Of a DNA stretch of 64,000 bases, positions 1 through 31,742 are shown piece after piece. Source of the DNA: Fuerstiella sp. GTDB lineage: Bacteria > Planctomycetota > Planctomycetia > Planctomycetales > Planctomycetaceae. How positions within the stretch are numbered: position 1 is the first letter of the stretch; each line of letters begins with the position of its first letter. Under the pieces are notes generated by a model. That model was not told the origin of the DNA and did no database searches. It saw only the letters and a program-made list of their open reading frames with translations. The stretch spans positions 5,351 to 69,350 of the forward strand of contig JALHMY010000003.1 of assembly GCA_022843805.1 (NCBI GenBank), given 5' to 3'. Both the position numbers and the translations under genes were made by a program.

Positions 1-3000
1 TCTTCACGGTAACCTCGGATCGTCGCATCGCTTGCGTAATTCGGATACACCGAGTTGATGTTGAAGCCGATTGCGAACGAATCGCCGGTGGTGATACTGG
101 CGTTCAGTGGTTGCTGAAGAGTGTACGTACCATCTGCAGGATCATATGCCGAAATCGTATTGACGAAAGTGGACACCGTTCCATCGCTGTTGACGTGGGA
201 GAAGGTGATCGACTTCCCAGCCAGATCGACCTGTTTTTCGTTAACAGTATGACCTGGTAAAGAGACGTTGAGCCGATAGAGCGTACCGGCAGGAATTCCG
301 ATCTCCTGTGCAGGATCACCGGGATCGCTCATATAAACGACGATTGTGTACGTATCTGCAGAATTAATTTCAAAGTATCGGAGCGGATCGTTTGCCGTCA
401 GTGAGCCGGAATCACCGTCCCCGCCCGCGTCCGTCAGTGTAATGTCGGCTCCTGCAGAGTTGAGCAGCCTGATCCGCAGGATCTCCGAACGACTGTTACC
501 GGACGTTGCATCGACAAATTGATCGATATCCAGCAATCCGGTCAGAGTTCCATCGCCTTCCGTCAGCGTGACAACAAAGCCATCCATGCCGTCCAGAACA
601 ATCTTGTGGTCATCCCCTGACTGTGGCGCCGTTGCACTCCAGTTCGGTGAAGAGTCTTCAGCCTTCTTCGTCAGTTCATTCACGATTTTGGCGAAACTGT
701 CATGGCGTTTCGCACGATAGTCGAAACTCTCTCCATTGACCGTCAGTACCCACATCTTGCCGACGGATGGCACACCATCCGCGTTGAATTCCAGCGTCAC
801 CGTGTCGTAGTGCGTACGGTTATCGCTGACCGTGGCAACTTCCATAGCAGCGCTTGTATGTGTGAGGGTCAAAGTCACAGGCTCTCGATCTGACCTTGAG
901 ATTGTCAGAGCGTCGTTCGCAACGCTGGCCGTGTATCCTTCTGCCTGCAGCAGAGTCTTCAGCCCATTAAGAATGGCCGTCAGATCATCTCCGGCCTGCA
1001 CCACGTAGCTTGCTGTGTCCGGAGTAGCGCCCGAATCGAGTGTCAGTGTCAGGGTGAATCGATCGCCTGTTACGAAACTGTCCAGAGCAGATACGCTCGT
1101 GGCCCAGTCTTCGTGCAGGACTCCGGTCGTCATCGCAACAGCATCAGACACCGGCATGACGACGGATTCAGATGCGACAATCGAATTGCTGTCCAGTCGC
1201 ACGACACTCAGTCTTGCGTTTCCGGTGCTGTATCGAGCATGGTAGACACTGCCGGAGTTGACAGATGCAGCAAGGCTGTTTCCGATTGTGCTGAGTGATG
1301 CTCCACCATTAACGACTGTATAGACTGAGTCCGACTGGCCGTTAAGACTCAGCGTCCACACTTCGTCTTTCACCACACTGCCCGTAAGATCCGCGTAGGT
1401 GACATGTCCGGACGAGGTTCCGGCCGTCGTGAGCAGTGCGTCTTCGCTAATCGCTGGCTGAATTACATACGTGATGTCCGGTCGCGACACGGACCCTACA
1501 AGGTCGACAGAAATCGCGTCGCCGTTCGCTGTTGCGGTATAGTCAGGCATCGCTTCAATCAGGTCTGCGATCGCCTGGGCTATCGTTTCTGTCGTGTCGC
1601 CTTCGACCGCAACATAGTCCGCCACCGTATTAGTGCCGTCGAGCGTAATCTTCCATGTCTCTCCCGCCGTGACGGTACCGCCGATTGTCAGCACTCTTAC
1701 TCCGGAACCACCGTTGGACACTGCAGCTGACCCTGTGACTGCAGCTGTGACTTCCGTTGCAACAACGGGCGCTGTCGCCCCTGTCTTACGGATGATCAGC
1801 AGGTTCGTGCCTTCATCGTAAGTCACGGTATAATCGAGTGTTGCGTTGATCTGATCTCGCAGTGAGTTTCCAACGGCATCCAGCGAGCTCAGCGAGGCAG
1901 TGAACGACTGATTGTCAACGGTTACAGCAAAAGTGTCCGACGAGCTGAAGGTATGGCCATTGTTGACTGAGAGTTCAACGTTCGTGGACGTCCACGTTCC
2001 CGAGGACAGAGTAATATTGCCGCTCGGCGATGCGGGAGCAACGCTGTAGCTGATCGTGAATCCGGTCGGAATCGAAATGGTCAGTGACGAAGTTGTGGAC
2101 GTGACACTAATACTGTCCGCCTGCAGTTTCTGCTTCAATTCCGTCACCATGTTTGAGACGGTTGTGCTGCCTGCAGCCGTGTAATCGGTGCCATTAATGC
2201 TCACTGTCACAACTTCACCGACGTGCGCTGCAGCCAGATTAACGGTTGCTGATGTCCATCGTGCTGTATCTCTGGTTGCGGCGTCGGGGTTGCCGCTAAT
2301 CAGGACACGTCCCGCAGGAGATGCTCCGGTTTGCTCAAACTGCACCGAAAATGAACCGCTGCTCCTGGCAATGGTCAGGATCGAATTACTACCGCCCACA
2401 GTATAACTTCCGCCGAGCCCATTGACTCCGGCCAGAAGTGTTCTTAACGCGGCCACGGTAGCAACTACATCGGATCCTGCCGGAACCGCGTAAGGCGTTC
2501 CGTTTACCAGAACTTTCCAGGAAGTGCTGTTTGCCACTGAGCCAGAGAAGCTCAGTGACGCGGAATGGAATAATGTCGAACCGCTGCCGGCCGTGACAGA
2601 TACAGATCCGGGGTTTGCATGATTAATGTACGGCGCCGCGAGAGTGAATCCTCTCGCATCCGCCAGTTCGATTCTGGTCGACGCGGGGTCGCCGTTCGTT
2701 ACCACACTGGCTGAAAAGTGTGCAGGTATCACAGCCGCAAGGCCGTCAGCCACGTCGCCAATCGTGGCGTCACCCGCCTGAACCGTGTAAGGGTAAGGCG
2801 TTCCGTTCAGAGTCACGATCCACTGATCCCCGGCGGAGACCGGACCAGCCATGGTCAGTGACGCACTCAGATAGAACGTACCATCGTTGACGTCCGCATC
2901 AGTAAACTCCGCTCCGCTTCGAATCAAATCTGTTGCAGAGATCGTGAATTTGTAGCGGTCAACCGATCCGTTTCCGAAGCCCTGGATCGTTGTATATGCA

Positions 3001-6000
3001 ACTCCGGAGTTGATGTCTCCGGCACCGATGTCGGGATTCTGAAGGGTATACCAGCCCGACGCCGCATCAATGTTCTGGCCGACAGTCGTTGCGCTTTCCT
3101 GTTCAAGCACTGGCTGCGGCGAAAAGATGAATGCATCCCGCACATGTCCCTGGAGCGATACGTGAAGATCGTATGTGGCCCCGATCGGAATTCCGAAGAA
3201 TTCACGGTCCGAAATGCGTATGACATAGGTTCCAGGCTCAGTAATTAATGCCGCCAGTGATGCATCGGAGTCATTGTCCAGCCCGGTTGACGGATCCTGC
3301 AGTTCAATCACACCCGAAGCTCTGGTGCTGTTGTTGAGATTCCAGCCCCACCACGGATAGACGGGCCGGGCAGCGGCAAATCCACCGCCCGATTGTCTTT
3401 CAATGGAAATCGCTCCCAGCCAGTACACATTGCCACTGGTCTGGTCGATGTCCAGAAGGACTTTTAAACCACCGTCCGGAACAGTATTGACTGTGAACCG
3501 GAAAAAGTCAGATCGACCCTCGCCCGTTGCCTGGACAGTAATGTGGGGAATGGTGGTCGACTGAGAGATGCTCGGATTGCTGTAGTCGCTCCATTTGCCC
3601 AGGTCCAGATCCTGAGCGTTTCCAACATAGTCATTGTCAGCAATCTCCGACAACACGGACCCGCCTGAGGCTCCTGCACCAAAGCTTCCCTTTACGGACG
3701 TAGAGTTGTTGATTTCCAGAACCTGGCCGCCACCCACCGGTACAGTGGTTGTAACTTCCGTGACGTCGGTGCTGCCTTTCGACTGAGTGATCAGGATACC
3801 GGCGGTGTCATTGTCGATTATTGTGACGTCTACAGAATTTGCCCTGACGTTCAGATAATTCCCGGTGCCCTGAACAGCATTGATGATTCTGGCAAAGTGT
3901 TTCCCTTCCTTCACAGTATCGTTTGTTGCGGTGATCGTGACCAGCTGCGGAATTTTCCAGTCGTCCGGAGTAAACGTCAGAACTCCTGTTCCACCAATCT
4001 GCACCTGACTGTCAGAACTGACGGTCACGGTAACATTGTTGTCTGGCCGTGCATTCAATACCACGGAATATGTGTCCGTTGTTCCGCCTTCAACAACCTG
4101 AGTCGAGTCTCCTGATTTGGCGATCAGTACCCCAGGCCGATCATTATCGACAACCTCAACAACCATTCGGCGAATCTTCAGATTGTCGTACTCGCCACCG
4201 TCGCCGGCGAACAGACCTTCAATGGCTGTATGTCGAATCTCAAGGAATTCAGTGCCTTCCGCAACGGTGTCGTTAAACGCGGTCACGCTGACCGTCTGTG
4301 GAATAAACCAGTTTGTCTGATCGAAAATCAGAATCGTGCCGTTCTCTTCACCATTGACAGCAATCCCGTCAGCCAGCTGACCATTTCCCTTGCGGGTCGG
4401 CGTGACACTGACACGAACAGGTTCTGCCGGTGATCTAGTCAGTACCAGGGCATAGCTGGCCAGTGCCAGACTCTGCAGCGATGCGGAAATATCCTCAAAG
4501 ACTCTGAGGTTCAGATTTCCTGACAGGAGCTGCACACCAGCTTCTTCGTTGTCCATTACATTGACGGAGACATCCACTGGCGCGACGTTGTTATAAATCG
4601 GCACATGCTGGCCGTCACCGGTGGTGGTCACGACATGACGGATGATCCCGCTGTGTCCTCTCAGGTCATTGCTGACCACGCTGATCGCAGTCTCTTCACC
4701 CTGCGCGTTTTTATATCCTCCACCTACGTTAAACGTATCGCTGCCCTGTCCGCCGACAAGGCTTAGAACAACGTCATCACGTGTGCCAGCAATGTAGAAC
4801 GTGTCATTTCCTGCGAGTGCGTCCAGAACCAGCTTCTCGATTCCCTCGTACGAAATCGCCAGCCCTCCGCCGTAGATTCCATCTTCCGTAACGACAAAGT
4901 CCTCACCAAATTCCGTGCCCACCACAGTCAGAGTATCCAGCCCATCACCGCCCTGAATATTCACAGGCGCATTGACTGTATAGGAGATGAAGTCGGCACC
5001 CTGCCCTCCGTTAATGTTTGTGATCGGGGCATCGGGATCATCCGGATTGACACGCACGAATGCACGTACAAGGAAATTGTCGTTGTCCGCGTCACCGTAC
5101 AGGGACAATTCCGCAATATTGCGGTAAACCGTAAAGCTGTCGTCACCATCGCCGCCCCAAAGGCTGGCCGGAGCACTAATCCCGTTGCTCAGTGATCCGA
5201 GAGTCGTCGGGATCGTCGGAAAACGGTCAGCTTCAGCAATATTCGCCAGTTCGTCCCGCTCTGACTTGAAAATCTGCCCAATCTGGAACTTGTCATTGCC
5301 ACGACCACCAAAAATGTCCAGCGGAACACTGGTGTCATCAAGTACGAAGATGTCGTCACCTTCGTTACCCTTCACAACGATCGATTCCAGGTCGGCTGTA
5401 TACGCCAGTCGAATTGCACCACCGTTGTGGACAAAGTTGCCATACTGATCAATCTCCACGGCGGAAATGGAAACCGGACGGAACAGAAACAGATCGGCAA
5501 AGCGGCTTCCGTCCACTGTCAGCGCATCACTGTCCGTGCCACCGGCCACCAGCTCCACAATATTGATTGCCGCGTTACCTGTCCCCGTCATTCCCACGAA
5601 GTATTTATCAGAACCTTCTTCACCATGAAGGCTAAGGACTCCGGAGATTTCATTGGTTCCCGTCAGCTTTTTGCTGCTGTCGTGGTTAACGAAAATGTTA
5701 TCGTCGCCTGTGCCCGCGTTAATCGTGGTCGAACCGGCGGATCGGCGGACGATGATGTCATCGACACCGTCTCCGGCATTTACAGTCAGAGTCTCCTCGA
5801 CCGTTGACGTCAGCATAATCTGATCGGCACCATTTCCGGTATTCAGCGTCAGATGATCGAGGTATCTGGTTGGGCTGACCGTCACACTGTCGACAACAGC
5901 AGGTGTCGCATTCGCATTGATGTTCAGTACACCGGTTTCGAAGCCTGAGAACCACAGCCCATACTGATTCAGTCCGGAAACGACATCGTATCGCACGGAA

Positions 6001-9000
6001 TAGGCGGACGCTTCATCGCGGCTGGCCACATAAGCAGCGGGAACCACGACCTGCAGGTCTTCGACCCGGGTGATCGTCACTGTTTTAGGAACATACAGTC
6101 CGGCATCGTCCTGAATCTGCTCAATGTCCGCAGTGTGCGTATTGCCGTTCTTTTTCAGCGTAAGTCCATCAGCGACAGGCATCCGAATATCAGTACGCAG
6201 CTGCTGTTTAAATGCTGTTTCAATCAGACTTGTGACCGTGGCATCCGTGAAAGTCGCTGCAAGGAATGCACTATGCTGGCCCGATGTCAGCAACTGAAGT
6301 GAATACAGCGCATTCACATAAGCCGACCAGTTAGCAGCTGTCAGGTATACGCGATCCTGTTCAATCGCCTCAGCAGGTCCCAATACACTGCGAGCATCCA
6401 CAGCCACCATCGGCGAAATCGACTGATCCCTGTCATTCAGGCGACGCACCGCGACCGCTTCAAGCTTCTGGTTGCCGAGACTGTCCAGTCCGTAGAACGA
6501 CCAGGTGTAATACGATCGCTGGTAATTATCCATCGCCGCCACATAGGCACGCTCCATCCGAATCGGATCATATCCGTACTGTTGCCCGCTGATAGTTCCG
6601 TGAATCATATTTCCAGGGGCCGTGTTTCCCTTGTCACCATCGCGGAAGATCACCCACGAGATTTCGCGAAGAGTCCGAGTTTCGCCGCTGGTGTCGTTAT
6701 CCGGGAACATTCGGTTCAGATCGTCCGCGTCATCCCATGGGTCGAATCGTGACGCATAGGGAGTACCGCTGGAACGGTTGAACCAGTCTTTTCCATCTGT
6801 GTACTCTTCTTCCTCCCAGACCTTCTGATTGAACTTGTAGGTTGTTATACGCGAGGCAACCTGTGGCGTTGTCTGCTCATAAACCCTCAATCCGGGGTCG
6901 GCCGTCCATGTGAATCCCTGTGCAGTTCGCAAATCGCTGCTGACACTCGCAAGCGTGAGGAAGTCACGCAGCTGTTTCAGACTGGATTCCACGCTGATGG
7001 CTGAAACACTGCCATCCCCGGTCAGCTCTCTCAATGCAGTGGAGTTCAGCAATGCATCGAGCGCATCCACGGAGAACGACGCAGTGCTCTGTCCGTTCGA
7101 CAGTCCCGCCAGAATTTTTCCTCGAAGTACGAAGGCCTGCAGGTCCGTTTTCAGCCGCTGCTGCACAGCAGTCGACAGTCCGGTCAGGCCAGTTACAGCA
7201 GAATCCAGAGCGTTCAGCGAGGTCGTGATGCTGTAAGTGTTGGTGACGGTGTCCACGGAAACCGACACGGTGGCACTGTTCACCGTATTGTTGACGAGCT
7301 TCTTCAGAACGCCAATCTGTGTTTCCTTGTCTGCTCGTTCCAGAGCACCCTGCACATCGTCGTGAGAAATGCGGGGATCCAGCGTCAGTGCACTCAGATT
7401 GTAAGTGTAATCAGCCAGATCAAGCACCGTTTCACCCAGCGACATCGTAATGCCGTCGCTGTCGGCCGCATTGATTGTGAAGGTATCCCCAAAGGTTTGC
7501 CCCTGGACCGTCTCCTGCGGACCGCCGGCAATTCTGACGACACCGGCAATTCTGCTAATGTCAAAGCTGGCTGGCATGATCTTTGTTGCCTCACGCACAG
7601 GCAGCTGATCGAATCGATACGAAGCGGATCCGGAAACCGTTTCCGTGTCGAAGTTCTGCTCCACATTGATGATATTGTCCGGCGCAGGAGCGGCGATATC
7701 ATAAAAGAGTGTGATCAGGTCCCAGAACATACGCTGGCCCTGACCGGAGGAACTCCAGGTGTCGGTCCAGACATCCTTTTCCCCGGAAATGTGCGGCATC
7801 CATCCGCCCGCCGGAATCTGATGAGTATAAAGATCGCCCAGGTAAAGGTCGGGTTCCCAGCCCCAGTTCGCAATTCGAGCACTGCCGAGGCCTGTCCCCT
7901 GTCGCACCTGATCCGCCCGGATCATGTCGCCATAGATCGTGTAGGCAACCGCCGGGCGCAAATATTCATTCAGCAGAATCTGGTCAAGTGACCTTCCGTT
8001 GGCGGAGAACCGATTGCTGGCACTCACAACGCCGGTGAGTGTTTCGAAATCGAGCACTGCCGGCATCTGAGGCGCATAACTGTTCAGAAGTGCTGGATAA
8101 AGATAACTCGAATACACCGTCCTTCTGCCAAGATTCAGGAATCCATAACGGTACGAGTACGAGCTGACTGTCTGCATCCACCACCGACCACCATTGGTGT
8201 TCTGCAGCTGCTGTTCAAACGCATTGACGTTCGACAGCAGATCCTCGCGTTCTTCCCGATAGGCCGCCCAGCCGCGTGTCAAAAGAGTCCAGATGTTGCT
8301 GAGCGGTACAATATTCGACGAAGATGCCGCCAGTTCAATGGCCTGAGCATACAGCTTCAGGGCGACCGCAAGGTTTGCTTCCAGCAGGTTCCAGTGTTCT
8401 CTGGAAATCGTTACGTTACTCAGATCACGATCACTGATGTCGGATTTCACCCACTTCTTATAAAAGTCTCTCCACGCCTGCTGTTTTTCCACAGTCGTCA
8501 TTGAGAGCCGATTGAACGACAGATTGTTGTAGTTGATCGTCTGATTTTTAAACCGCTCCTTCACCACGTTCTGCTCGACCGTGTAGACAGCACTCGACTT
8601 CGGATAAGTCACAGTGAAAGTCTTTTCCTCCCCGCCGATGATGACCTGATCGTTTCCTGTTCCGGTGTTGATCAGCAGGCTCAGAGATGACTTCAGACCG
8701 TACAGATAGACGATGTCGTCACCGGAGCCGGTGACGAGCGCCAGTCGTTCAATACCGTCAATGTTCTCCAGCTTCAGTCCGGCGCCATACAGGTATTGCC
8801 GATTGTCGGCGTCTGTGAAGATGTAGAAAGTATCAGCCAGTGCGGTTCCTGCAACAACCACTGTGTCAAAGCCGCTGCCCCCATAAATGGCGACTCGGTT
8901 GTTCTCCAGATAGTTAATCAGAATATTGGATTCGTCTGCCTCAATATTATTATTAACATCGCCTGCCCCGGCAGTAATCTCGGCTCCCCCAAGTGAACTC

Positions 9001-12000
9001 GATGTTGGATTGTTATCCGGTCCCTGAGCCAGCAGCTGTGCTTTCAGAAAGAACATGTCGTCGCCAGCTTCACCGAACAGTTCCAGCACGCCCACGTTAT
9101 GATTGACTTCAAAGTAGTCGTCACCACGACCGCCAAGGAAGACGGCGTTGTAACTCACTCCAGGCGTGACACCGTCTTCACCGTCAATAGCTTCCACTGA
9201 CTGCTGATTGACAGTCACAGTCCTTGTTTTGATGACTCGGCCAATGACAAAATTGTCGTCGCCCTGATCACCTGAAACAACGATCGCGGCCATGGTGTCG
9301 TCCACGATGAACGTATCGGCGCCCTGACCACCACGGATATCCACCAGTTCTGCTGTGCGGTCGTAGAAGACTCGCTGATAGGTCAGCGGATTCGTTACCG
9401 TTCCCGACTGTCTTGTCGTGGCGGCAGCATCGGCAATATCCATTGGCCGTGTGATGACCGACGTATTCTGAGTGCCAATTGGCAGGTAGTTACCTTTGGT
9501 GTCCTTGTCCGCAACAATCAAAGTAACACGGAAAGGATCACGATTCGTGCCAGCGCCTGTGACAGTCGCCGAGGTGATCGTCGACAACGCCTCAAGCGCA
9601 GCCTCAATCTGTGATGCCGTCGAATTGTGATTCAGCTGTGTTGTCTGCTGCCCATTGTAGACCAGCTGGTAACTTCCGGTTTTCCCGGTCAATACGTTAA
9701 ATATCTGAGTCTCGTAGCCGGGACGCTCAAACATCGCGTCAATATCAGGTTTTCCGTCCAGCAGCCCGGGAACACCCTGCGGAAGTCGAGTGACCGTGGC
9801 CCGGCTGACCCGGGCTTCATAGCTTTGGCTGGTCGTGCCGATTCGGAACAGCTTTCCTTCCGCATTCGCCGCGTTCGGATTGGTGTGTTCCAGCTCGATT
9901 TTCCACAACATCCCCTGACCGCTTCCTGATCGTGTTACGACAACGCTGCTGAACAATGGGACACTGTTCGCTGTCAGCGCAAGAAGCGCGTTACGCACAT
10001 CCGACTCTGATGCGTTCTCGGCAAGACTGGAAGTCGTGAATCCGTGATACGTCAGCGCGAAGTTGCCGGAACCTTTGCGCTCAATTTCCTGGTGAGACGT
10101 ATCGGCATCCAGATGCAGAGTGTCGTCATCCTCTCCGCCGGTGATCTGAACACTGTCAGAATCCGTGCTTCCGGTGCCCGTATCCGTGACATAGACAGCA
10201 GACTGCAGATTGACTGTGCCCGTTAGTGTGAGCACATAGTTGTCACTGCCTTCGGTTCCGTCCAGCCAGGCATTCTTCGTGAATGCCGTTACGGCGAAGT
10301 TATTGATTCCGGCTCCGCCAAAGATCTCAAACTTCTCAAAAACTCCAATCCCTTTGGTGAGCGGATGATCCGGGTCAGAAGTTTCCACCTCACTTACGGG
10401 GTTCATAAGCGACGGATCGATCAGATCGCGTTCCAGACCAGTTACCACAAACTCCAGGTCTGAAATGCGGAAGTTCAGATTGCGAACTTCCTGCAGAGTA
10501 TCTGTCCCCGAGATATCAAGAAACGCGTCAACTCCGGCGCCTCCGGTGACAATGTCATTCCCGGCCCCGGAATCGATGATGTCAGCACGACTTGTGCCAA
10601 CGATGCGGTCGTTTCCGGTACCGCCGAGCAGCTGCAGTTTGTCAACGGCATGGGCTGAAACGATATCCTGAAGCACCACATTCAGATCAGGATCTGCTTC
10701 AAGTTTCGGAAGGAAGCCTGCTACCAGGCGGTCATCGCCCCCACTTCCGTCCACTGAAATCTCATCGTGATCAACCTGATTCGCGGGGTCGTCCAGATCC
10801 AGACCCCGGATTTTAATGACGACTTTTCGAGTGTTATTGAGCGTGCCATCAGAATTCAGGCGGCGGTGACTGATCTGCAGCGTATCTGTTTTCGTCTCAG
10901 TTACCGGGTTCTGTTCGCTGTCGAGTTGTCCGGTGAGAAGGACTTCGTGGCCGATCAGGAAGTAATCACGCAGTGCTGAACCGCTGATACTAACCTGATC
11001 CACGTCCTGGTCTGTCACCCAGGACGGATCTGTAAAGAAGTCCGTCTTCCCGGTTTGTTCCAGTATTCCGTCGCCATTGAGGTCGGCCCATACCGGACGC
11101 TCAACAAGTCGCGGACCTTCCTGTTCAATCGTCATGTGCGGAGAAATGTACTTGTCGTCTGACGCACCCGATTCGCTGCTTCCAAAAATCGCCAGTTCGA
11201 CCGGAATCACCTGCCCCTGAGCGTCCAGACCACCACCTCGAGTCATTTGCTCCCAGACACCGAGTTCGCTCCTCTTCTCAAGCGACGACATGGTCTCGAT
11301 CGGATTGTTTGCCAGCGAATGGAAGTCACCATAGTCAATCGTCACGATCAGCGGATTCGACGGATCATATCCCTCAATCGTGATCTGATATCCCAGTGTC
11401 GCAAGTTGTGAATCGTCAATCCGGACCCGAGTACCGGGATTCAGCTGATTAAGCAGTGTCTGCAAACTTGCCAGTGTTTGCGGATCGCCGAGCGGGAGTG
11501 CTCCGGGCTGGAATCCCCGCGAGTTGCCATTGAAGAAGAATCGTACAAATTCAAGATCTGCAGCAATGCTGATACGTCCCAGTGTCACTGTTGAAACGTC
11601 GAGAGGCGAAATCAACTCGCCGCTGACGAACTCAAGCGAGTGCAGGTTTCCGGAATCCGGGATGCTCACGACGAAATTTCCGGAAGAGTACACGACGCTG
11701 GCACCTGACAATCCTGTTAACGTTCGGAGCCGGGTCTGCAGAAGTGCTGCCTGTCCGGAAGTGCTGACCGAATCGATGTCGGTGGACCGTAATGCCACGG
11801 TCTGGCCGTTGTACCTGAATGCACTGCCTTCAACGATCTGGCGTCCCGGGACCGCCTGGGAAGTTAACGTGCCGTCCATAAAGGCATCGTCGAAATCATC
11901 TCCACTGATGATCTTTAGTTCGGCCGTCGCAGCGTCTTCAAAGTAGATGAAGAAGTAATCAGAATCGTAACCCACTTCTGCATCGGCCAGCCCGTTCAGT

Positions 12001-18000: not shown

Positions 18001-21000
18001 AATGTGCCGAAATTAATCGTTCCGGCCGATGCAAGATCATTGATGTTCTCAAGAAATTTGATCGTACTGTCAATGACCTGCAGTACTTTGGTCATTGTCT
18101 CAACGGTCTTCGCCGGCAGACGCAGTCTGGCAATGTCAATGAATCGAATCGGCGGACTTGCAATTCCACCAAGCGGAATCTCGAACAGCAGCAGATCGAC
18201 GACTGGCTTCAGCGGGGTCACGATGTCGTGAATTGTGCTGAGCGTCGTGCCCAGGAAACTGCGGAACATACTTCCGACGTCAAGTGTCACGTTCTCCAGA
18301 ATGACTTCCGGACTGCCAAAGTCGATCGTTGCCTTTCCACTGGTTGACAGCTGCACATTGCCCAGCATCTGAGCATAGTGAATGGTCGTCGAAATCGACG
18401 GAAGGAAGTTGCCGGCGATGGATTCCACTGATGCTGCCAGATGAGCTTCTGCCCAGGCTGATGCATTCAGGGCCAGAGTAACTCCTTCGCCCACCTTCCA
18501 TTTGCCATCATTGTTGGCATCCTGAATATTCAGACCAAAATGACCCCACAGGCCCGTGTCGTTACCTTCCGCGGTCGACTCCGTGAACTGCATTTTCAGA
18601 AAGCCGAGCGTACCGGTTGCTGTGGAACCGTTTCCAAGTGTCGCAGACACGTCAAGTGACAGTTCTTCCCCGGATTCATTGATTCCGGTCGTGTCGATAA
18701 AGAACCCCATTTGAGGAATCGGCCCTGCGCTGACGTTACCGATTCCCAGCCCAATCCCCATCAGATAATCGATATGAGCCAGCAGTTTTGCGTCAACGTC
18801 GAGGTTGACTCCCGGGATTCCGGCGGAGAAGTCAATCGGGAGTTGTCCGTCAACCAGAGTTCCCCCAAACATCAGGTTAAATGTAATCAGTCCGCTCGCC
18901 GAGAACGTCAGCTGAATATCTTCGAAGCTCGTGGGAACCCTGACGAGTAGCTTTCCTGATGAGTCGTACTGCTTGGCCCCGAATTCATCCAGTTGCGGTA
19001 CGACAAAGGCAAACAGAGATCCGGAAACGCCATTCGTTTTCGCACCAGTCATCTCATTCAGCGCATCGAATCCGTTGAACAACTCCTGACGAATTTTGTT
19101 CAGAACGCTGTCAATAATGCTGGAGCTTCCCTGATCCTGCAGCCATTTCCCAAGGCCCTGACTGTAATTTGAGCCAACCTTCTTTCCGAGTACGCTGCTG
19201 CGAATATCGCGCAGGGTATTGGCGAGACTGTCGAACGGGCTGCCACCAATGACCGGCAGTTCGATCGAATCGATGCCCTTTGCAATAGTGTCAACGCCGT
19301 CAAAGAAGCCTTCCATGCCCCTCAGCACGTTTCCAGCATTGTCGATATAGGCGATGAATGCCTGTACCGCATCAAAGCTCATTGAGATGCGTGGCAGTGA
19401 ATAGCTGTAGGTTGTCTGCAGAACAAAGGTTTCATCAACAGAAAATCCGACATCGGCGTGCAGAACGTTGTCCGCCACACCGTTTCCATCCCGGTCCGCC
19501 GTTGTACCTCCGAGTGGCAGAGACGTAGTCGGGAAGAACATCGGAAGATCAATCGATGCGTTGCCGGACAGTTCCGCCTGAAACGCCGATCGCAGAGACA
19601 TGGGAGAGATTCGTCCGTCGCCGTCTGCGTCCGCTGCCGGATCTCCAAAGTCCGCTTTGAATCCGGCCTGAATTGCAGCCGTACCGTTCACGATGTACAA
19701 GCCGAGCGGCGGCAGATTCACGGGCCCAATGGAAGGAATATCAATCGCCAGACTCGCGTCAATGTCTGAGGCAATACCTGACGCAGAGGCGACGATGCCG
19801 GTATCCGCGTCCACTACGAATGAGGGATCAAAGACATTGCTCAGATCAAATCCAAATCCCAGATGCAGGTCCACACTGGCTGCGACCTGAACCGGCGCTG
19901 TCAGGCTGATGTCCAGGAATTGAGTGGGGTCAAAACCCAGCCATTGCTGCAAATTCAGCTGCTTTGCGTCGAGTTCCAGATTGTACGTGCGGCTGATCGC
20001 CTGTTCGAAGTCCAGATCAAATTCGAATACTCCGCCGCTGTACGACATCGTCACCAGGTTGACGCCGGCAGCCAGCCCAAAGAACGTTCTCAGTTCTTCA
20101 TTAAGCTGGTCCTGCAGCTGACCAATGTTCCTGGCAGAATCACGCACTGTGTGGATGGCGTTTGCAAAACCGCCGGCAAAGCTGACTGCCCCGTCGCCCA
20201 GCATATCTGCCAGACTGACTCCCAGCATCGGGATGTCGTTGTACAGCTCGCCGTCGCGAAGACGAATCAGACTCAGATTTCCCGTGGTCTGCGACGCCCC
20301 ATTCTTCAGGGTCACCCCTGCCTGAACATCAGCCGTCAGGCGACTGATTGCCACGTCGTCGGCGTCGTAAGTGGCGCTCAGCCGATAGTGATCAATGTCG
20401 TATGTCTGCACCTCTGCGGTATTCGGTCCCGTGGCCGACTCAATACCCCAGACATTCAACCCGCTGTGCAACCATTCGGTCAGTCGCAGTCGATTGCCAT
20501 CGGTATCTTCGACAATCTTCGAATTCTGAACGCTGCCATTGACGACAGCTGTATAACCGGATGTCAGCAGAGCCGCGGTGCCCCAGACTTCGCTGTAGAC
20601 TTTCAGCTGTCCGCCGGTAAATTCACCGCTGGCAGCATCAACAGATCCACCGACCAGCGTTCCCAGCAGCTGGGTATCTGTTCCCACCAGATCATCCGCC
20701 ACGTCCTCAAGCGCTGCCAGGATCGTGTCAAGTGACAGACCACTGAACTGCAGCAAATCCGACATGCCAGTGATGCTGATCGTCGACGGCAGGCTGGTCA
20801 GGAAGCTGGTCAGTGAGGCTCCGGGCTGAATCAGTGTGCTGGTCGCGGTGATGTAGCCAACTCCATCACTGATTCCATCCAGCAAACCGCTCCATTCGAC
20901 TGGCAGAACAATCGTAAACTGACTGTCGTCACCCAGTGACACGTCCAGATTCTGGAGAAGGTCAAACGCGCTGCCACCACTTTGCAGTTCTGTAAACGTC

Positions 21001-24000
21001 AGTTTCTGGTCAAACCCAAGTCCGGCCGAGATGCCCAGCGAAATGATTGCATCGTTTGACTGTAACCCCAGTGGCCCCAGATTGATGCCGAAATCCATCG
21101 TCTTGATCAGAGAGCCATCTGCTGTTTCTGACGGAAGATCTTCAGCGACCACAATGGTTGTCGTATCGGTGTAGATGTTATACGTGGCTGACGTCACGGT
21201 ATAGATGGCATTGTTTTCAGTGGAACCGGCAACGGCGATTCGATCTCCGGCCACAAAGTGCCCGTTTGCCGAATTCAGCTGCCCGTTGGGTGTCGTCCAG
21301 TTGCCTGCGATCTGCAATGAATTTGACAGCACGTCAACACCAAGTATCGCGTGCTGAGTTTCTCCGAATTCCACTGAAGCGCTGACATTCGGGTCCAGCA
21401 CATAAAACCGACCATCACCGTCGATCCCGAATGCAAATTCCAGCTGGACTCCGGCTGTCAGCTGCAGTGGCTGACTTTGAGTGGTCGAAAGACCGAAGCT
21501 GAAAGGCAGTTCAATGTCGATTCCATAGTCCGAGAGGTCCAGGGAGAGTGTACTCAGATCGAGCACAATCGACTTCGAATAACTGGCGAGATCGATTGTG
21601 GCAAAATATTCCTGGACACCCGGAGATGTCGCGATCTGAATTCCGGGAAGATCCTGCAGCGCCAGCAGCATGCCATTGGTGTCAGGCGATGTGGCACTGC
21701 CGAAATAACCGGTGATCGCGTCCGAAATGTCGTCCACGCGGTCATTCACCGTCGCACCGAAATCTGCTGTATCCACTCCAAGCATGCTCACCAGACTAAT
21801 GTCGGTAAACGGGATGGTTGTCGCATTGGTCAGAAAATCGTCAATTCGCTCACCCAGATTCTCCGCCCAGTCACCAAATGCATCGAGACCGGCTGCCAGT
21901 TTATCCTCAGATGACAGACCCGTTTCAATGTGTCCGACAGTCGGATTGAGCCGAACCCCCGTCTTCAGACTGTGATTCATCAGATCAGATGAATCAGGTG
22001 TTTCAGGATGATCAATACCGGCGACGTGCCCCAGCTCATGCATCAGAACGGTTAGCAGATCGATGCCGACAGGCGGACTGCTGGCAAATTCACTGTCACC
22101 GGATGCTCCGGTAAAGTTTGTATCCACGTACCAGCCTGCACCTGCCGCATTGTTGTCCAGCGTCAGGTCATATTTACTGGTCGCGGAGTTCCATACAACG
22201 CCGGCGATGGTGGTTCCGAGCTCCGAGATCTGAATATTAATGGCGCCCGCACTGATATCCAGACGGTCGGGCAACAGGGCGTTCCAGCGTGCAAGTGCTT
22301 CGGTCGCCAGTCCCGTAACCTGCGACACGTTTGTCAGTGAAACTCCACTGTTTCCGGAACCTCCGTCTGCCAGTACCACCGGACCACCGAGCAGTTTCTT
22401 TCCAAACAGTTCATTAATTGCGCCGGCTGAGCTGCTGGTTGCCTCTTTGATTCTGAATGCGCCAAACGCCGTGACACGGTTGTCACCCCATGTAAAGATT
22501 GTCGCACCGTGTTCCGAAGCTCGCGTTACCTTGCCACTGACTTTTGTAAAGTCGAGCACGTCGTCCCCGCCACCGCCATACACAAGGTTCCTGCCACTGT
22601 TATCGGTGAAGTAGAACGTATTGGCTCCGGAATCGCCCATCAGGACGTCATTGAATCGGGTGCCCTCAATGCCTTCAATGTTGCTGAGCGAAACAGTGGA
22701 TGCCGAACTGGTAAACTTCACCAGACCAGCTCCATCTCCGTTTCCAGGGTCAGCTGTTGCTGACAACACTGTGTCCGTGATCGATGCATCAAACGTCACA
22801 TCGAACGCTTCTGTGCCTGCGTTCCACACCACGGTCACTTTGCCTTCGCCCACGCTGGCAAGCTGTTCAAGCTCATGCTGTATGGCCTCACTGCTGGCAT
22901 TGAACGGAATACGAGCCGTGGTGTTGCCCGAATGAGTCAGTGTCAGCAGACCGGCGCTGGCATCGATTGAGATCGATGTCCCGGAGATGGTCACCGATCC
23001 GACTGTCAGACCGGTGTGAGCAACACCCGCTGCAAGATCAATTACCATTCTCTGCGGTGAAGCTTCAAAGATGACAGTGTCGTCTTCATCCCCGCCGTCA
23101 ACAACGTCACTGCCGCCGTGGCCAAGATTGAAGGTGTTCTTCTCGTCGTTACCGCGGAGCAAATCCTTCAAAGCCGTGCCTGTCGCCGAACCAAGACCGT
23201 CAACAGCATTGTTTTCCGGAGCGAATGAGCCGAGTGTTCCGGAAGGCACCCATAAATCCAGACCGGCCAGCCGACTGCCCAGTACGGCCGAGGCCCGTCC
23301 CCAGTTGACATTCACACCCGGGAACGTTCCGAGCACCGGAAGGGGAGCTTCTGTACCTGGTATTCCCCAGGACAGTCCTGCGGTACCGTCAACAACAATG
23401 CCGTCATACGTGACATTGTCGACAACTGTTGAGCCGGACGGTGTGTAGTCGCTGTAGTCGAAATGAATGCTGCCCCCGTCCCCGGCTGCCACGTAACCAT
23501 CCAGACGTGCGTCTCCATGGAACTTGAAGGTGTTCTTCCCTTTTCCTCCGATGATGTTTTCGATGCCCGTTGCAATCACATAGTTGAGGCCAAAATCATC
23601 AAATGAAACTGCCCCTCCCAGAAGGTCGGCGAATCGTTCTATAATCTGTGTACCAGCGTCATTCCGCGCAAGCACAAGCGTCATTCCGACCGACAGCGGC
23701 ATCGGATGACCCAGGGCATTCAGTCGACTCTGCCAGTCCCCAATATTGTCTGTCGACAAAGTGTAGATATCAAATGTGTTGTCCCCGCTGACAGCATTGA
23801 AGTCCAGCGTGTCGAATCCAAAATTCAGGTCGACGCCGGCGTAGACTGAAGGCGGTTCCACCACAGCGGCAACCCCCCAAAGACCGCTGAAACGGTACGT
23901 ATCCCCGCCCGTCATGCCGGACATCAGATGAATGCCAGGTGCGATCACCGGTTCGCCGATTGACAACTGCCCTTCCAGCAGACTTGAAGTCAGTGTGTCT

Positions 24001-27000
24001 GTAATAAACTTACCAATATCCTGCACGGTTGAGCCATCAAAGCGACCATCACTGGTTCGGCCATCGCCAAACAGGCTGCTCAGAATATTGCCACCCACCT
24101 CGAATACGTTCTTCCCCAGTGAGAAACTGCCGTCACCAAACAGAGATGACTTCGAGGCAGCTGTGGCTTTTTGTGCGAGCAGCGCTTCATAGATCGCCAC
24201 GTTGGAGCCAAGCAGCAGATTGAGTCCGCCACCGTAAGTCACATTCGACATATTTTTCACCACGCCGGTGAAGCCCGCAGCCCCTGGCGTGTTGCCAAAT
24301 CGACCATGCAGCAGATCTCCAACACTGACATCCTGTGCCAGCTGAGAAGCGTTCGCAGTCAGCATTCCGGACAGTGGCTGATCCTTTCCGCCAGCACCAC
24401 TGAACGTGACGTACCAGGTACTGGCGTCGGTTCCATTGACCTGAGCAAGTCCAGGAGTCGCGGTGAGACTGTCAAATGCGGCCTGGATTGAGGCTGTCTG
24501 GTAGCTGGTGTCGCCGGATGTCGCTCCATTGTACGCCAGCTGGAAACTGTTGCCGGCTTTGGCAATATCCAGCCGAGCCAGTTTCTGAATTTCCGCGACC
24601 GCCCGCTGTCCTTCGCTAACTGTCACGATCGTGGCCGATCGATCTGCTGAATGTCGCTGAACAAGAGAAGATGAATCAATCGAAAGTTTCTCAATTCCCT
24701 TAGTTGAATCGGGGCTGACGAATTCAACGATAAACTCCACTTCGTCGGCATCCGTGTCTCCCGCGACGCTGATCAGTGCCCTGGCGGCTCCGATGACGGA
24801 CCACGCTGTCACGTTGACGGTTGTGACTTTGCTCAGCGATTCGATTGCCGATTTAATGCGGGCAGCGACGGCCAGAGCATCAATGGATCCGACCGGCGAA
24901 ACAGGCGTGGACAGCAACTCAATCGGCTCTGTTTTTTCGCCGCCGTAGCTGACGACAAAGGAACCTCCGTCGGCTTTGTTCAGTGAGAACGTCTGAAGGC
25001 TGTTCTCACTGAAACTTCCATCGCGACGTGTCAATACTCCAAACGTCCCGCCCGTCGGCTGCTGCGCGACCGTCATCGCTGCAATATTGCCTGACAGAAG
25101 GTATTCAATATCCCATCCACCCAGTGGATTGACATTCACAAACACAGCATTGGTGCCCAGAACACCCGCTGCATTGATTGCCGCCTGAATACTGGCAGCT
25201 GTGTCCTGAGCCTGTGCACTCAGAGTGATTGCTGCCGTCGTTTTCTGAACACTGCTCACCGGATCGGTAATGCTCAGAGAAAATGTTCCGCTGGCGGGAA
25301 CTCCCTGCACACTATTTGTCAGCGTCAGCCGCTGAACCTCGTGCACAACACTCTCCATGCGAACGTTCACCGGACCGACCGGTGAATGACTGACAGCGGA
25401 AGGCTCCGCGACCGAGCGATTGCTCAGCACAAAGGGGCGCACCTTACCGGCCGTTGCCGGAAGGCTGAAAGTGATCGTCAGACCGGTGGCAAGGTTACCA
25501 CTAACCGAGACTGCTCCGGCCCCAATTGCGGCGTTCAACTGAGTTTCAACGTCTGTCGCGAGCGAGGCACTTGAAATACCAGCAACGATGGAACCCGTCA
25601 GGCTGGCCGTCCCGGCTCGCTCGACGTTGTATCGCAATTCGACAAACCCGGTCGTGGCAGAACCGAACGTCAGTTTCTGAATCTGACTACCATCCTGAGC
25701 ATACTGTGTCGTGTTAATCACCGCAGCGGCAACCGGCGTGTCGTTACTGCCGTCCAGTACATCAATCTTTACGTTCCCCCGAGGAAACGAGATATTGAAC
25801 ACGTTAGTGCCGGCAGGTGTCACTGAGGCCGCGCCCAGCGAAGCAGTCAGCATGTTCGCCGACACAATCTTATCAAGTGCAGCTCTGATGCCTGCCGCTG
25901 TTTTTGCTGTTGAAGCTGTCGTAACGATTGTTCCGGCAGCCGTCGTCAGTCGAAGGCGAATACTGCTGACCGCACTCGCTGCGCTCAGGTCCACAACTGT
26001 GGTCATGGACTGGGGAGTGCCCAGTGCCGTCACGTTCTTTGCTGAGAGTTCAGTCAGGCTGCGAAGTTCATCACCAACAACCTCAGTCAGAGTCAGACTG
26101 GCGTAGTCGATACCGGACTGAAGAAAGATGATATCCCAGGCGCTGACTGTTGATCCGTTGTCGTCGACAATTGAAATGGGTCGAACGGTGACACCCTGAG
26201 TCGGCAGTTCATCCAGCTGCACGTCCAGCGCAGACTGGATTCGTGTGGCGATTTCCGCTGCTGTGGCTTTGGTGATAATCTGTTGAGCCCCGGTGCCGCC
26301 CTGAACATGGTGCAGACTGATCGATGAGGTTGTGAATGCAGTTCCATCTGCTTTTCGTCCGCTCAGTGTGAACGAGCCAATGCTCGCTTCGCTGATGACC
26401 AGTCTCTGTACTTCAGAGCCGTTATGAGCATCGGTGACAGTTTGAGTATTCACCGCACCATTGTTGATCAGATGCGTCAGGTTAACGACTGTTGGCGTCG
26501 AAGCCCGGCTGTCCGACATGTCCAACGTGTTGATGGTGCTGATATTGGGGATATCCAGCGTCACAGCACCAGTCAGCGATTCGTAATCGAGGAACGATGT
26601 GAGCGGTCGCAGCCCGGTCTGTCCGATGATTGTCCCGCTGAACGCCGTGTTTCCAACGATTTTGAAATTGTTTTCGTTCAGTCCGCCGATGATCGTCGTG
26701 TTGGCATCCACATTGGTGATCACGACCTTGTCATAACGGATTTCGCCCCAGTAAGAATTCCACAGGTCAGACACATAGCTGTCGCCAAACACCTGCGGCA
26801 GATTGTAGACCTTTTCAATTGTCAGCTGAGTATCTCCGGCAGCTCCCTCGCGCAGTACTTCCGCATCGGCACCAGGCAGCAAATCGCCGGATCCATCTGC
26901 CTTGATGACATTCAGTAATGCGACGTTCTGCAAAGCGCTAAAAGTAACTTCAAACTGACCAGCCGTCAGTAATGCCGATTTGACTGTGACTGTGATGCCA

Positions 27001-30000
27001 TCGAGGCTCGTTCCGGTAAACGCACTGTTCAGCGCATTCTGAATGGCAGTGGCCGTAATGCTGTCTTTGGTTCCAACGGTGATATCGCCGGTCGTCACGC
27101 CGTCAATGCGAAGGCGGAACTTAGTGCCAGCCGGTGAACTGGCTGGCGTCAGCTGAACCTGCTGAATTTCCTGTTTACCCGAATTCTCAAACGTGAACTC
27201 CATTGCACGACTGACGTTACTAAAATCCAGCGTCAGCTTGTGACCATTCGCAGTCAGCACGCCGGAGTCAATTTTCAGTTCACCAAAGTCACGATACGCC
27301 GCTGGAAGCAGTGCCTGTTTGGCCACTTTTCCAATGGAATTGATGATCTCATTGCCGAAATACAGCGTGTTATCTGAATTCGAAACAACGATTGTTTCGA
27401 TGGCGTCCAGTCCGCCTCCGCTTTGACCGTCCTGAATGGTCGTCACCGTGGAAGTGACCGCTCCCGCTGTCGTCAGACCTGCGGCATCGACAGTGATATC
27501 TGCAACATCCTTATCTTCCGGACCGCTAAACGTGAGATCAAAAGTCTGACTTCCGGCGTTGCCGGTTCCCTTCACCGACACTTTGAATTTAGAAACACTG
27601 AACGTGCTTTGACGTACTGCTTCCACAGCCGCATCAATGGCCGCTGCAGTGACGGCCGGATCGTTATCCCATGGTATTGCGGCCGTCTGGCGGGAACCAA
27701 TGCTCAGTACAAAGGAGCCTCCAGTGACACCCGACAATGCGATTCGCTGAACTTCCGCACCAGATTGTCCCTGTTGCAGATTGAACGAACCGGTCGCATA
27801 GGTCAGTGCGGGCGAAACAATGCTGACAGCCGATACATTCACGGCTGCCGGGCTGGTGAACTCAACCTTAAAAATTCCCAGTCCGGTCGTGACAACGGTC
27901 GCAGCAGCTCCCGTCGCATCGATCGCCGACTTGATTCGTGCAGCGGTCGTCTGAGGATTGCTGTCCACCTGAATGCTCAGGGTGGACCTGGGAGATCCAT
28001 TATTGAAGGACAGCTCAAAACTGCCGCCACTGGCCATGCCCAGATTAAACTGCCAGATCGCATTCTTTCCGGCTCCACCCGTCTGGATTTGAACAGGCGC
28101 GGCCGGACTATCCCATACGAGCCCTGTAGTATTCAGTGTCAGCTGGGCAACATCAGTCCGGGCCGGCTTCAGGAACTCGATGTTAAATGTACTGACTGAT
28201 CCAACGATGACCTTAACAGAATCGGCACCCATGGCGTTGTTTAACGCGGCCTGAATATTCAGAGCGGTTGCTGCGTCATCAGCACCAACAGTAACTGTGC
28301 GACTAAAGTTCAGACTGTTCGCGACATCGGCAAGACTCAGAATAAACGTAGAGCCAATGCGAGCGCCAGCCAGAGAGATGGCCTGCTGCTCATTAATGCT
28401 GCCAGCTTTCACAACATTCAGCACATCGCCGCCACTAAAGCTGCCGGTAACATTATTGAAGCCGGTGAAATATCCCGGCCGGTTCTGCAGCGTGAGTGTG
28501 CCGTTGCCGGCAATGAGCCTTCCGTTGCTGAAGACAAAGCTCAGATTACTGGTCACCTGCGAAAGGTCGATCGTGTCACTGCCCCCTCCGGTTCCTTCAA
28601 TGACCGTTTCGCTGCCCCAGCCGTTCAGCAGGATATAAGTGTCATCATTCAAGCCCCCAATCAGCGTATCTGTCCCGGCGCCGCCCGTCAGAATATCTTT
28701 GCCAGTTCCGCCCTGCAGGTTATCGTCGCCTGCGCCACCGTCCAGACGATCATCGCCCGCATCGCCTTTGATCGTATCTGTGCCGCTGCCACCCAGAAGA
28801 TTGTCATTGCCCGCGCCTCCGCTGAGCGAATTTGCTCCTTCACCGCCGCTGATGCTGTCATTGCCCGGGCCGCCGGAGAGTATGTCGTTGCCCGCCGCCC
28901 CCGCGAGAATATCATCGCCCGCATCGCCACTGATGGTGGAATTCCCGGCGCCCGTATAGATCGTGTCGCGACCCGTGCCGCCGTTTGCCGTGCTTCCGCC
29001 GATCAGCACCATTTCCTTTTGTGCCGGGCCGGCAAGAATACTGTGCAGTGAATCAAACCCATTCAGACCGAACGGTGCCTCTCCTGCCTGAGTGGTTGTG
29101 ACAACCGCCGATCCACCGGGGAGCGTCTGGTCCGCGGCTGTTCTCAGTAATGCGGAATCGACCGTGAACTGGGGATGATTGGCCTGAATGGCGAATGTAA
29201 TCGTCCATTGAGTGTTTCCGTTGGCGACAACGGAGAATAACCCCGGACCCGCCAGTGCATTCAATGCAGTCTGAATATTATCGCGGGTTGCTGCACCGGT
29301 TGCTCCAAACAATATCGGCGCACTGCGGAGACTTCCCAGTGATAATGTGAAGCTGCCGCTGGCAGCATTATTAATTGTCAGCGTCTGAATTTCGTTCTTT
29401 GCTGCGGGCGCAGCGGAAAGATTCAGGCCAGTCGCCACTTTGGCCGTCGTATCAACGACAATCGGGACCGTCCCGCTGTAGTCGCCATAGTCCAGAACGT
29501 TCCTGCCACCCACACCAGCAGAAATCGTTCCTCTTAGCGCATTTTCGCTGTTAACTCGCCATGTATTAATTCCCTTTCCGCCCACAATACTGGCAATGCC
29601 GGTGGCTTTGACCTCATACGTGTGGGTCTTTGCGGAATTACCGCTCCCCTTCAGAACTCGCGCGGTGACCGTCACACTTCCGCCAGCTTCCAGCACGAAA
29701 TCCAGATTATGAGTGACACTGCTGAAGTCCAGAGTTCCTTTGGTGTTCCCGGATGCAGTGTCATCGACAATGAATGTCGTTTTTGGCTTTGCATCTGTTG
29801 ATGGAAGAAAGCCCCAGTCATCATGGAAGCGGTAAAGATTGGTCTGGTTTCCGCCAATCAGCTTTTCAATGTAGCGAGCGTTCTCCACCTTATTCCATGA
29901 CGAAGTTGTGCCGACAATCTGTACTCCCGCAGGACCAGATGTTGCCACGCTGGAATAGATATTTGCAGTGATCGCATAGGGCGCTGGACGGTTAAAGCTG

Positions 30001-31742: not shown

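Follow-up and report, generated by a model that had tools for sequence, protein, structure and literature searches.

Half of a 64,000-nucleotide stretch of DNA from Fuerstiella sp. (assembly GCA_022843805.1, contig JALHMY010000003.1; the whole stretch is called the window here) is occupied by one stop-free reading frame on the minus strand that runs off the left edge. Is this frame a single genuine gene, and what would a protein of such length do for the cell? The results presented here reveal that this half of the window is the 5' 31.7 kb of one genuine gene, the true length of which is at least 11,654 codons. The gene is selectively maintained, and its product is best read as an exported, extracytoplasmic protein that forms a long, calcium-stiffened, multivalent adhesive fibre with its own protease domains. 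A rough probability of 0.55 is given to this reading. Residue numbers are counted from the ATG at position 31742.

The open frame is a single gene

3..31742, minus strand: giant open reading frame (ORF), codons 1-10,580 of at least 11,654; start at ATG 31742, 3' end beyond window position 1

The first-pass annotation had described a minus-strand frame without a stop over 3..31742, and translation of the full reverse complement bears this out, giving 10,580 codons with zero stops. The giant ORF had gone unlisted because the ORF listing omits ORFs that run off the end of the source. The start had also been placed correctly at ATG 31742. An in-frame TAG lies immediately 5' of this codon, and the orthologue on JGI contig Ga0558718_04301 (L018) begins MSLEEWLRSLK..., aligns from Met1 and is 53% identical over residues 1-49. 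Since L018 conserves the protein from its first residue, ATG 31742 is confirmed as the start.

The annotation had further held that the gene exceeds 31.7 kb, with at least 10,580 codons, and continues to the left of position 1. Logan contig SRR28154521_80295 (51,506 bp; locus L001) harbors the identical gene, called with 11,654 residues. On that record the gene runs from position 34964 down to the contig end and is still open, which raises the real minimum to 11,654 codons or 34,962 nt. Protein identity between the window and the Logan contig is 100% across 2,691 shared residues of the giant gene and across the four neighbour genes that were compared. The stop codon is not reached in the window, in the Logan contig or in the homologue L020 (JGI contig Ga0105047_10000369), and the homologous fragments P0125-P0130 likewise lack the C-terminus. 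A hunt for the 3' end with the last 400 residues gave no match in GTDB genomes or JGI metagenomes, and an alignment of the homologous tails used as query retrieved only L020, whose contig likewise terminates within the gene. Every assembly extending into the 3' part of the gene in this family thus breaks off within it, at window position 1, at the end of SRR28154521_80295 and in L020. Near-identical repeats further downstream are one hypothesis that could explain these breaks.

The missing 3' end in the window, the Logan contig and L020, together with frameshifts in the homologues L018 and L019, could raise the suspicion of an artefact, whether a frame open by chance, a chimera of shorter genes created in assembly or a pseudogene in decay. 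Chance is readily dismissed. With a random-codon stop probability of ~0.040 taken from the window base counts, 10,580 stop-free codons would arise with a probability of ~1e-188, and the second-longest open stretch across all six frames of the window is 1,079 codons. A chimera is contradicted by the Logan contig, which was assembled independently from run SRR28154521 and is identical over the shared part. No direct DNA repeat inside the ORF exceeds 48 nt or 84% identity, and the repeats within the protein share just 24-50% identity, so repeat collapse in assembly is unlikely. Codon usage resembles that of 17 neighbouring genes, with a relative synonymous codon usage correlation of r = 0.94 and a third-position GC content (GC3) of 0.58 compared to 0.54.

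Homologues and selection also argue against an artefact. Collinear homologues are present in three other metagenomes at 33-85% identity, and L018 and L020 together are collinear with the giant gene along its whole visible length. L018 is collinear with residues 268-7600, mostly at 50-85% identity, with a drop to 34-44% in a diverged module array around residues 6000-6500. It is split into ORFs of 2,465, 1,803 and 5,164 residues by two single-base frameshifts (~9990 and ~15285) at GGGG and AAAA runs, where sequencing errors would be expected. These frameshifts are probably sequencing or assembly errors, and the case illustrates how public gene calls break up giant genes. L020 contains an uninterrupted ORF of 3,843 codons that is collinear with residues 7239-10580, mostly at 41-70% identity, and that leaves its contig 970 nt beyond the equivalent of residue 10580. 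The third homologue, ENA contig_84709 (L019), is more distant but collinear and has many frameshifts. Between the giant gene and L018, nonsynonymous divergence (pN) is 0.25 and synonymous divergence (pS) is 0.74, the latter saturated, over ~6,800 codons. Since this pattern is kept in every 500-codon block, selection acts along the whole length, and comparison of the two sequences indicates that the gene is under strong purifying selection. The collinear homologues and this selection uphold the earlier claim of a single gene rather than several. The probability of an artefact or pseudogene is very small, and such explanations are effectively excluded.

The choice of search method matters for a protein of this size. 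A word-indexed protein search with the last 800 residues returned nothing, a false negative given that a full HMMER search with the last 1,200 residues found 209 relatives at E <= 1e-3. The word-indexed search returned no protein longer than ~1,800 residues and missed relatives; it is weak evidence for the absence of homologues when the query is a giant protein. Pfam yielded no meaningful match for the distant homologues P0131-P0150, and Rfam, tRNA and promoter/terminator scans added nothing.

Calcium-binding repeats and small modules

28608..29000, minus strand: main RTX nonapeptide (GGxGxD) block, residues 915-1045; PF00353 HemolysinCabind
Residues 515-590, 5000-5330, 6995-7085, 7432-7756 and 8641-9068, minus strand: further RTX blocks, from Pfam, NCBIfam and a regular expression
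3753..4538, minus strand: Calx-beta-like repeats, residues 9069-9330; weak match to PF03160

The visible protein is rich in glycine (10.5%), with abundant threonine, serine, alanine and aspartate, and has a net charge of ~-633. Its 10,580 residues include three cysteines and no membrane-like segment. About 85% of the protein is without a Pfam match, and the first-pass description of the functions of such genes as essentially uncharacterised is fair in this respect. A polyketide synthase/nonribosomal peptide synthetase (PKS/NRPS) megasynthase was considered and rejected, as Pfam and NCBIfam scans found no condensation, adenylation, ketosynthase (KS), acyltransferase (AT) or carrier domains. Membership in the MARTX and LapA-type families was likewise unsupported by these scans.

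Among the calcium-binding repeats, PF00353 matches six stretches with an E value of 3.3e-25 and 88 bits. On a fragment the E value is 6.7e-29, and the scores of 88-100 bits compare with a cut-off of 23. The regular expression found 35 nonapeptide-like motifs. NCBIfam RTX-type and SMc04171 calcium-repeat families also match, all far under their family cut-offs. In the Calx-beta-like part, residues 9034-9213 and 9169-9324 form an internal repeat of 30% identity.

24375..29396, minus strand: first module A array, 11 copies in residues 783-2456, from a local iterative hidden Markov model (HMM) search
22767-23003, 13434-15305 (6 copies), 12204-12422 and 9495-9716, minus strand: other module A copies, for a total of 20
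11619..13397, minus strand: module C array, 5 copies, residues 6116-6708, from local HMM iteration
555..2858, minus strand: module B array, 8 copies of ~77 residues each, residues 9629-10396, from local HMM iteration

Three families of small modules, with 33 copies in all (20 of A, 8 of B and 5 of C), make up ~25% of the residues, and no Pfam family covers any of them. Module A consists of ~75 residues in the order beta-beta-beta-alpha-beta-beta. Its profile matches only proteins of mycobacteriophage Bxb1 in the PDB, namely gp23 (E 7.8e-24), the capsid protein (E 1.6e-5) and the tail-tube protein (E 2.4e-4); the matched chains were confirmed as Bxb1 by tblastn. A paralogue-based AlphaFold2 (AF2) model of module A has a predicted local distance difference test score (pLDDT) of 88.5 and a predicted template modelling score (pTM) of 0.76. 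Foldseek placed Bxb1 and Patience chains on top for this model, with a probability of 0.95-1.0 and query-normalised TM-scores (TMq) of 0.62-0.72, and a search against BFVD returned actinophage tail and capsid proteins with similar values. Module A also matches PHROG 1260, 'minor tail protein', with an E value of 9.6e-11. Based on the sequence profile and the predicted fold, module A is homologous to the surface-exposed C-terminal decoration domains of the Bxb1 capsid, tail-tube and tail-tip proteins.

Module C is probably a diverged relative of module A, as judged from a comparison of the two alignments with hhalign (probability 78.6%, E 1.7e-5). A relation between modules B and A was not detected by hhalign (probability 2.9%). 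The module B profile has weak PDB matches to the phage structural proteins 9zdk gp76, 9c39 and 9mt4 (E 5e-4 to 1.3e-3), and the module is frequent in other long proteins, with up to 20 matched stretches in one. An assignment of module B to LysM was rejected; the 'Y-x-V-x-x-G-D' strand-helix start is similar by eye only, and the PDB LysM matches (E 0.0075-0.3) are not significant.

It seems likely that a protein with these properties is exported. The RTX and Calx-type repeats, the charge of ~-633, the scarcity of cysteine, the lack of a membrane segment and the leader described below all point in this direction. The RTX blocks would fold upon meeting extracellular calcium. By analogy with the phage surface domains, the module arrays may serve as spacers and as weak multivalent binders.

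The same modular, fibre-like architecture would suit a structural part of the cell envelope, such as a fibre, a holdfast, an appendage of the crateriform structures or a scaffold in the periplasm, as opposed to an adhesin directed at the surroundings. Structural roles have been proposed by Kohn et al. for some planctomycete giant products, and an enlarged periplasm was reported (PMC5177795). No sequence feature separates such a part from an adhesin. A core envelope role is also disfavoured in that the closest genomes available lack the giant gene at the syntenic locus. RTX repeats, moreover, normally require extracellular calcium levels. An envelope component is considered improbable.

Leader and protease-like domains

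31587..31742, minus strand: N-terminal leader, residues 1-52; a basic stretch, then LENRTLLS (residues 42-49, nt 31596-31619)
30906..31385, minus strand: DUF4347 domain, residues 120-279; PF14252 matched over profile positions 1-155 of 164 (E 9.7e-50; 169 bits, cut-off 24.6)
21873..22355, minus strand: metzincin-like zinc-protease region, residues 3130-3290; HELGHVAGIDH at residues 3235-3245 (nt 22008-22040)

A basic stretch followed by LExRxLLS also precedes DUF4347 in unrelated homologues from several phyla. The leader resembles the Pfam family PF07595, Planc_extracel ('Planctomycete extracellular'); the likeness is real, and membership is not established.

Within the DUF4347 domain, His179 (VHIFSHG; nt 31206-31208) and Cys222 (ILLYGCNVA; nt 31077-31079) are invariant in 21 aligned DUF4347 domains. 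Each follows a hydrophobic strand, and the two are ~43 residues apart, a spacing typical of clan CD. PF11713 Peptidase_C80 is matched by 6 of the 21 domains (best E 9.5e-5), and the DUF4347 profile matches PDB chain 9qpe_G, a 'DUF4347 domain-containing protein', across both motifs (E 0.011). The protein in 9QPE is Pseudomonas aeruginosa Tce1/PA0256, the DUF4347 part of which is reported to superpose on the cysteine protease domain (CPD) of TcdB, including a His/Cys dyad (PMC13323088). The DUF4347 domain of the giant protein is a putative self-cleaving cysteine protease of the toxin-CPD (peptidase C80-like) type. From its position just behind the leader, it would cleave the protein in cis and lead to release or maturation.

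In L018 (2668-2900, compared with window 30870-31742), a 49-residue leader is followed directly by the equivalent of residue ~290, and both the acidic linker and DUF4347 are absent. Because L018 skips from the leader to this point and is otherwise collinear, the acidic linker and DUF4347 constitute an optional presence/absence cassette.

The second protease-like region lies within the body of the protein. The three histidines and the glutamate of its HExxHxxGxxH motif are invariant in five sequences (the giant and four homologues, 38-67% identity), and the glycine is present in three of the five. A candidate Met-turn, 'DLM', ends at Met3254; methionine occurs 9 residues past the third histidine in four of the five sequences, with leucine in the fifth. 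PF00413 Peptidase_M10 matches through profile positions 102-137 of 159, with 25.1 bits on a 300-residue fragment and 20.9 bits on a 5,000-residue piece, compared to a cut-off of 24. A profile of the region matched karilysin in the PDB (E 3.3e-6) over 37 residues of the active-site region. The conserved zinc site is a candidate metzincin of the matrixin-like type, which could process the fibre or attack external protein substrates.

The RTX repeats suggest type I secretion, and a protease-like domain adjoins the N-terminal leader. LapA-type adhesins undergo release cleavage near the N-terminus. The protein could accordingly be an RTX adhesin of the classical type I-secreted kind, like LapA, SiiE or the ice-binding adhesins, and would be exported C-terminus first through an ABC exporter, a membrane-fusion protein (MFP) and TolC, retained in the outer membrane by its N-terminal part and released by proteolysis. 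RTX blocks above the Pfam cut-off, long arrays of small domains and an acidic, cysteine-poor composition are consistent with this possibility. However, none of the genes of a type I secretion system (T1SS), whether for the ABC exporter, the MFP or TolC, was found among ORFs of at least 150 residues in the 32-kb flank (31743-64000), where the sole ABC ATPase adjoins a ZnuA-type binding protein. No NCBIfam adhesin retention-module or prefix family matches residues 1-10000, and the RTX blocks are dispersed within the visible part rather than gathered before a C-terminal signal. A classical type I-secreted adhesin is unlikely.

The pairing of RTX repeats with a peptidase-C80-like domain is also that of the MARTX toxins, and the protein might instead be a self-processing toxin or antagonistic effector. 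Its repeats would deliver the protein, and the CPD-like protease and the metzincin would act on or in a prey, competitor or eukaryotic host cell. The metzincin site is conserved, and giant proteins have been linked to predation in Omnitrophota (West-Roberts et al., bioRxiv 10.1101/2023.11.21.568195). DUF4347 proteins include candidate type VI secretion system (T6SS) effectors such as Tce1, whose relative Tce2 shows active-site-dependent toxicity towards yeast (PMC13323088). Yet the NCBIfam RTX_toxin model NF033943 reaches 87 bits where 1000 are required, and no domain recognisable as an effector turned up. The CPD-like cassette is absent from the closest orthologue, L018, and decoration-type modules, which are typical of adhesive or structural proteins, account for most of the protein. 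A MARTX-like effector is distinctly unlikely. What sets the type I-secreted adhesin, the MARTX-like effector and the envelope fibre apart is chiefly their target and mode of release, and the sequence by itself gives no means of choosing between them.

Conserved regions without outside relatives

16773..21845, minus strand: conserved core, residues 3300-4990; 64-75% identity to L018, compared to 44-64% in most module arrays
5823..8474, minus strand: tryptophan-rich region, residues 7757-8640; 59-68% identical in L020
8475-9449 and 4539-5822, minus strand: paralogous beta-roll-like blocks that flank the tryptophan-rich region, mutually 29% identical
3..554, minus strand: last visible residues, 10397-10580 (184 residues), not the C-terminus; conserved in P0125, P0129, P0130 and L020

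Residues 2460-2900, 3300-4990 and 7757-8640, ~3,000 residues altogether, are conserved and have detectable relatives only within the giant family. The core at 3300-4990 is among the best-conserved parts of the protein, since its identity to L018 exceeds that of most module arrays. It has no Pfam match, and a PDB sequence search with residues 3290-4990 gave nothing usable. The homologues recovered for the core (P0121-P0124) all come from metagenomic sequences of planctomycete type. Of the three cysteines of the protein, two, Cys4822 and Cys4870, lie in this core 48 residues apart (window 17133-17279) and are conserved in L018, in which the stretch is 78% identical. They may close a loop by a disulphide. 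The tryptophan-rich region likewise has no Pfam match, and PDB sequence searches with residues 7731-8640 and with residues 9001-9600 gave nothing usable.

The visible tail does not end the protein. Homologues of the tail run 168-541 residues past the equivalent of the window edge and there contain a Calx-like domain and a beta-roll, plus a further copy of module A. Such a continuation is in keeping with the 1,074 codons by which the Logan contig extends the ORF.

The conserved regions give rise to a further possibility. The giant and its three metagenomic homologues could form a distinct family of planctomycete giant exoproteins, in which a conserved leader, an optional CPD-like cassette, a metzincin and phage decoration-domain arrays may be arranged around conserved cores. 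The dark cores (residues 2460-2900, 3300-4990 and 7757-8640), and not the repeats, would then carry a new activity, such as translocation or interaction with membranes during self-processing delivery of a MARTX-like kind, and the leader would mark an undescribed planctomycete export route. Such a family with its own activity is rather unlikely.

Several findings weigh against the reading of the product as an exported adhesive fibre with its own proteases. In addition to the T1SS genes not found in the 32-kb flank, a Sec-type hydrophobic signal-peptide core was not found at the N-terminus, and the leader scores 14.1 bits with PF07595, below the cut-off of 25.5 (E 0.038). The Calx-beta match to PF03160 (E 0.01, 16.3 bits) is also below its cut-off of 27. 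With respect to the proteases, the giant's own DUF4347 domain has no Peptidase_C80 match, the protease activity of Tce1 is itself putative (PMC13323088), and the absence of DUF4347 from L018 indicates that the domain is not essential to the core function. The metzincin match is restricted to the active-site helix, and the AF2 model of the region is poor; for residues 3090-3800, modelled from a five-sequence alignment, pLDDT was 46.8 and Foldseek returned noise save for low-coverage local matches to the zinc peptidases selecase and MATCAP. Finally, the ~3,000 residues without an assignable fold may hold the real activity. The exported adhesive fibre is nonetheless preferred, at the probability given above.

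Host and gene neighbourhood

32088-35063, minus strand: VWA-domain gene and DUF1501 gene, which share the strand of the giant gene and lie directly upstream of it, with gaps of 51 and 345 nt
42157-43101, minus strand: sigma-54 activator of 314 residues
48021-51522, plus strand: adjacent flagellin (Flagellin_N/C) and filament-cap FliD genes

The genes around the giant include those for DUF1501, DUF1559/N_methyl, LpxB, ZnuA, a sigma-54 activator, flagellin and FliD. The adjacent UvrD/PD-(D/E)XK helicase is 50-58% identical to proteins of Planctomycetaceae metagenome-assembled genomes (MAGs). Based on this identity and on the DUF1501 and DUF1559/N_methyl genes nearby, the host is a member of the Planctomycetaceae. 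The homologue P0122 is annotated as Planctomycetia.

The helicase was used to recover 15 loci, from Planctomycetaceae, Planctomyces and Planctomycetota MAGs and one Opitutales MAG, and a giant gene is nearby in none of them. The VWA gene is retained in only one of the 15, the MAG locus L016. There the VWA gene is syntenic, unlike the DUF1501 gene and the giant, and short genes come after the VWA gene instead.

The flagellin and FliD genes are 16 kb from the giant gene. The sigma-54 activator consists of an AAA+ domain and a Fis-type helix-turn-helix only, without a receiver or sensor domain.

Significance and comparison with known systems

With more than 11,600 residues encoded, the gene is a well-supported further case of the giant surface-protein genes typical of Planctomycetota, and it leaves the general picture of giant bacterial genes unchanged. 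It does provide three leads. A cellular protein here contains 20 copies of a 75-residue domain that Pfam lacks and for which structures come solely from the virions of actinophages. A recent proposal makes DUF4347 a toxin-type cysteine protease, and in this protein it forms a removable cassette behind a conserved leader, where a role in self-release is testable. The best-conserved parts of the protein are without recognisable relatives and are good targets for structure prediction.

Planctomycetes are rich in giant genes. Genes of more than 30 kb have been reported from Fuerstiella and Gimesia, up to a maximum of 36,239 bp in one survey. For planctomycete genes of more than 20 kb, the InterProScan results indicated cell adhesion, carbohydrate binding and an outer-membrane location (PMC5177795). 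Planctomycetota are a phylum in which proteins of at least 10,000 residues are 'frequently detected'. The longest protein on record has 85,804 residues, and in a single public database 7,478 gap-free proteins reached 10,624 residues or more (bioRxiv 10.1101/2023.11.21.568195). The first-pass placement of this gene among the largest in bacteria should therefore be qualified as to rarity, giant genes being frequent in this phylum.

The single domains have known counterparts in other settings. The DUF4347 domain shares with Tce1/PA0256 and other DUF4347 proteins a strong PF14252 match and the invariant histidine and cysteine. However, Tce1 is a T6SS cargo of 310 residues that is loaded into Hcp (PMC13323088), whereas in the giant the DUF4347 domain is a cassette with a leader on one side and more than 11,000 residues of body on the other, as in many proteins that combine DUF4347 with cadherin, RTX or PMP repeats. 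Catalysis is putative in both the giant and Tce1. Module A resembles the decoration domains of the Bxb1 capsid, tail tube (gp19) and tail tip (gp23) (PDB 9D93, 9D94 and 9D9W) in sequence and fold, and its tandem arrangement is like that in gp23. Unlike these, it occurs in 20 copies (25 counting module C) in a cellular protein of a Gram-negative-type planctomycete and not in the virion of an actinobacterial phage. The zinc site has the HExxHxxGxxH motif and following methionine of the matrixin metzincins (PF00413; karilysin of Tannerella forsythia), conserved in homologues, but only ~37 residues match and the remaining catalytic domain is not recognisable.

As a whole protein, the giant is similar to RTX adhesins and MARTX toxins in its GGxGxD blocks and in being huge, acidic, repetitive and cysteine-poor. 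It also shares with MARTX toxins a peptidase-C80-like domain within the same polypeptide. It differs from them in the absence of T1SS genes in the 32-kb flank and in an RTX_toxin score far below the cut-off, and, unlike in MARTX toxins, the CPD-like domain is N-terminal and dispensable in an orthologue. The giant proteins of Omnitrophota and other bacteria of the Planctomycetes-Verrucomicrobia-Chlamydiae (PVC) group (West-Roberts et al., bioRxiv 10.1101/2023.11.21.568195) are similar in their PVC host, in a length of more than 10,000 residues, in being mostly unannotatable and in their fragmentation in assemblies. The giant described here is much shorter than the 30,000-85,804 residues studied there, and the cell-wall-degrading domains reported there were not found in it.

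The closest parallel is with the planctomycete giant genes described by Reva & Tummler (2008) and by Kohn et al. (2016, PMC5177795). Like these, the gene has a planctomycete host and a length of more than 30 kb, its predicted product is a non-enzymatic surface or adhesion protein, and its locus is not shared with related genomes. It belongs to the class as defined, being longer than 5 kb, hosted by a member of Planctomycetota and not a PKS/NRPS gene. At 34,962 nt or more it stands at the top of the survey range of Kohn et al. (largest 36,239 bp), and it carries DUF4347, phage-type decoration modules and a metzincin, in place of the Ig-like, lamin-tail and PapD-like domains reported there. It is reasonable to conclude that the gene is an unusually long and mostly unannotatable addition to an already known type of planctomycete giant gene.

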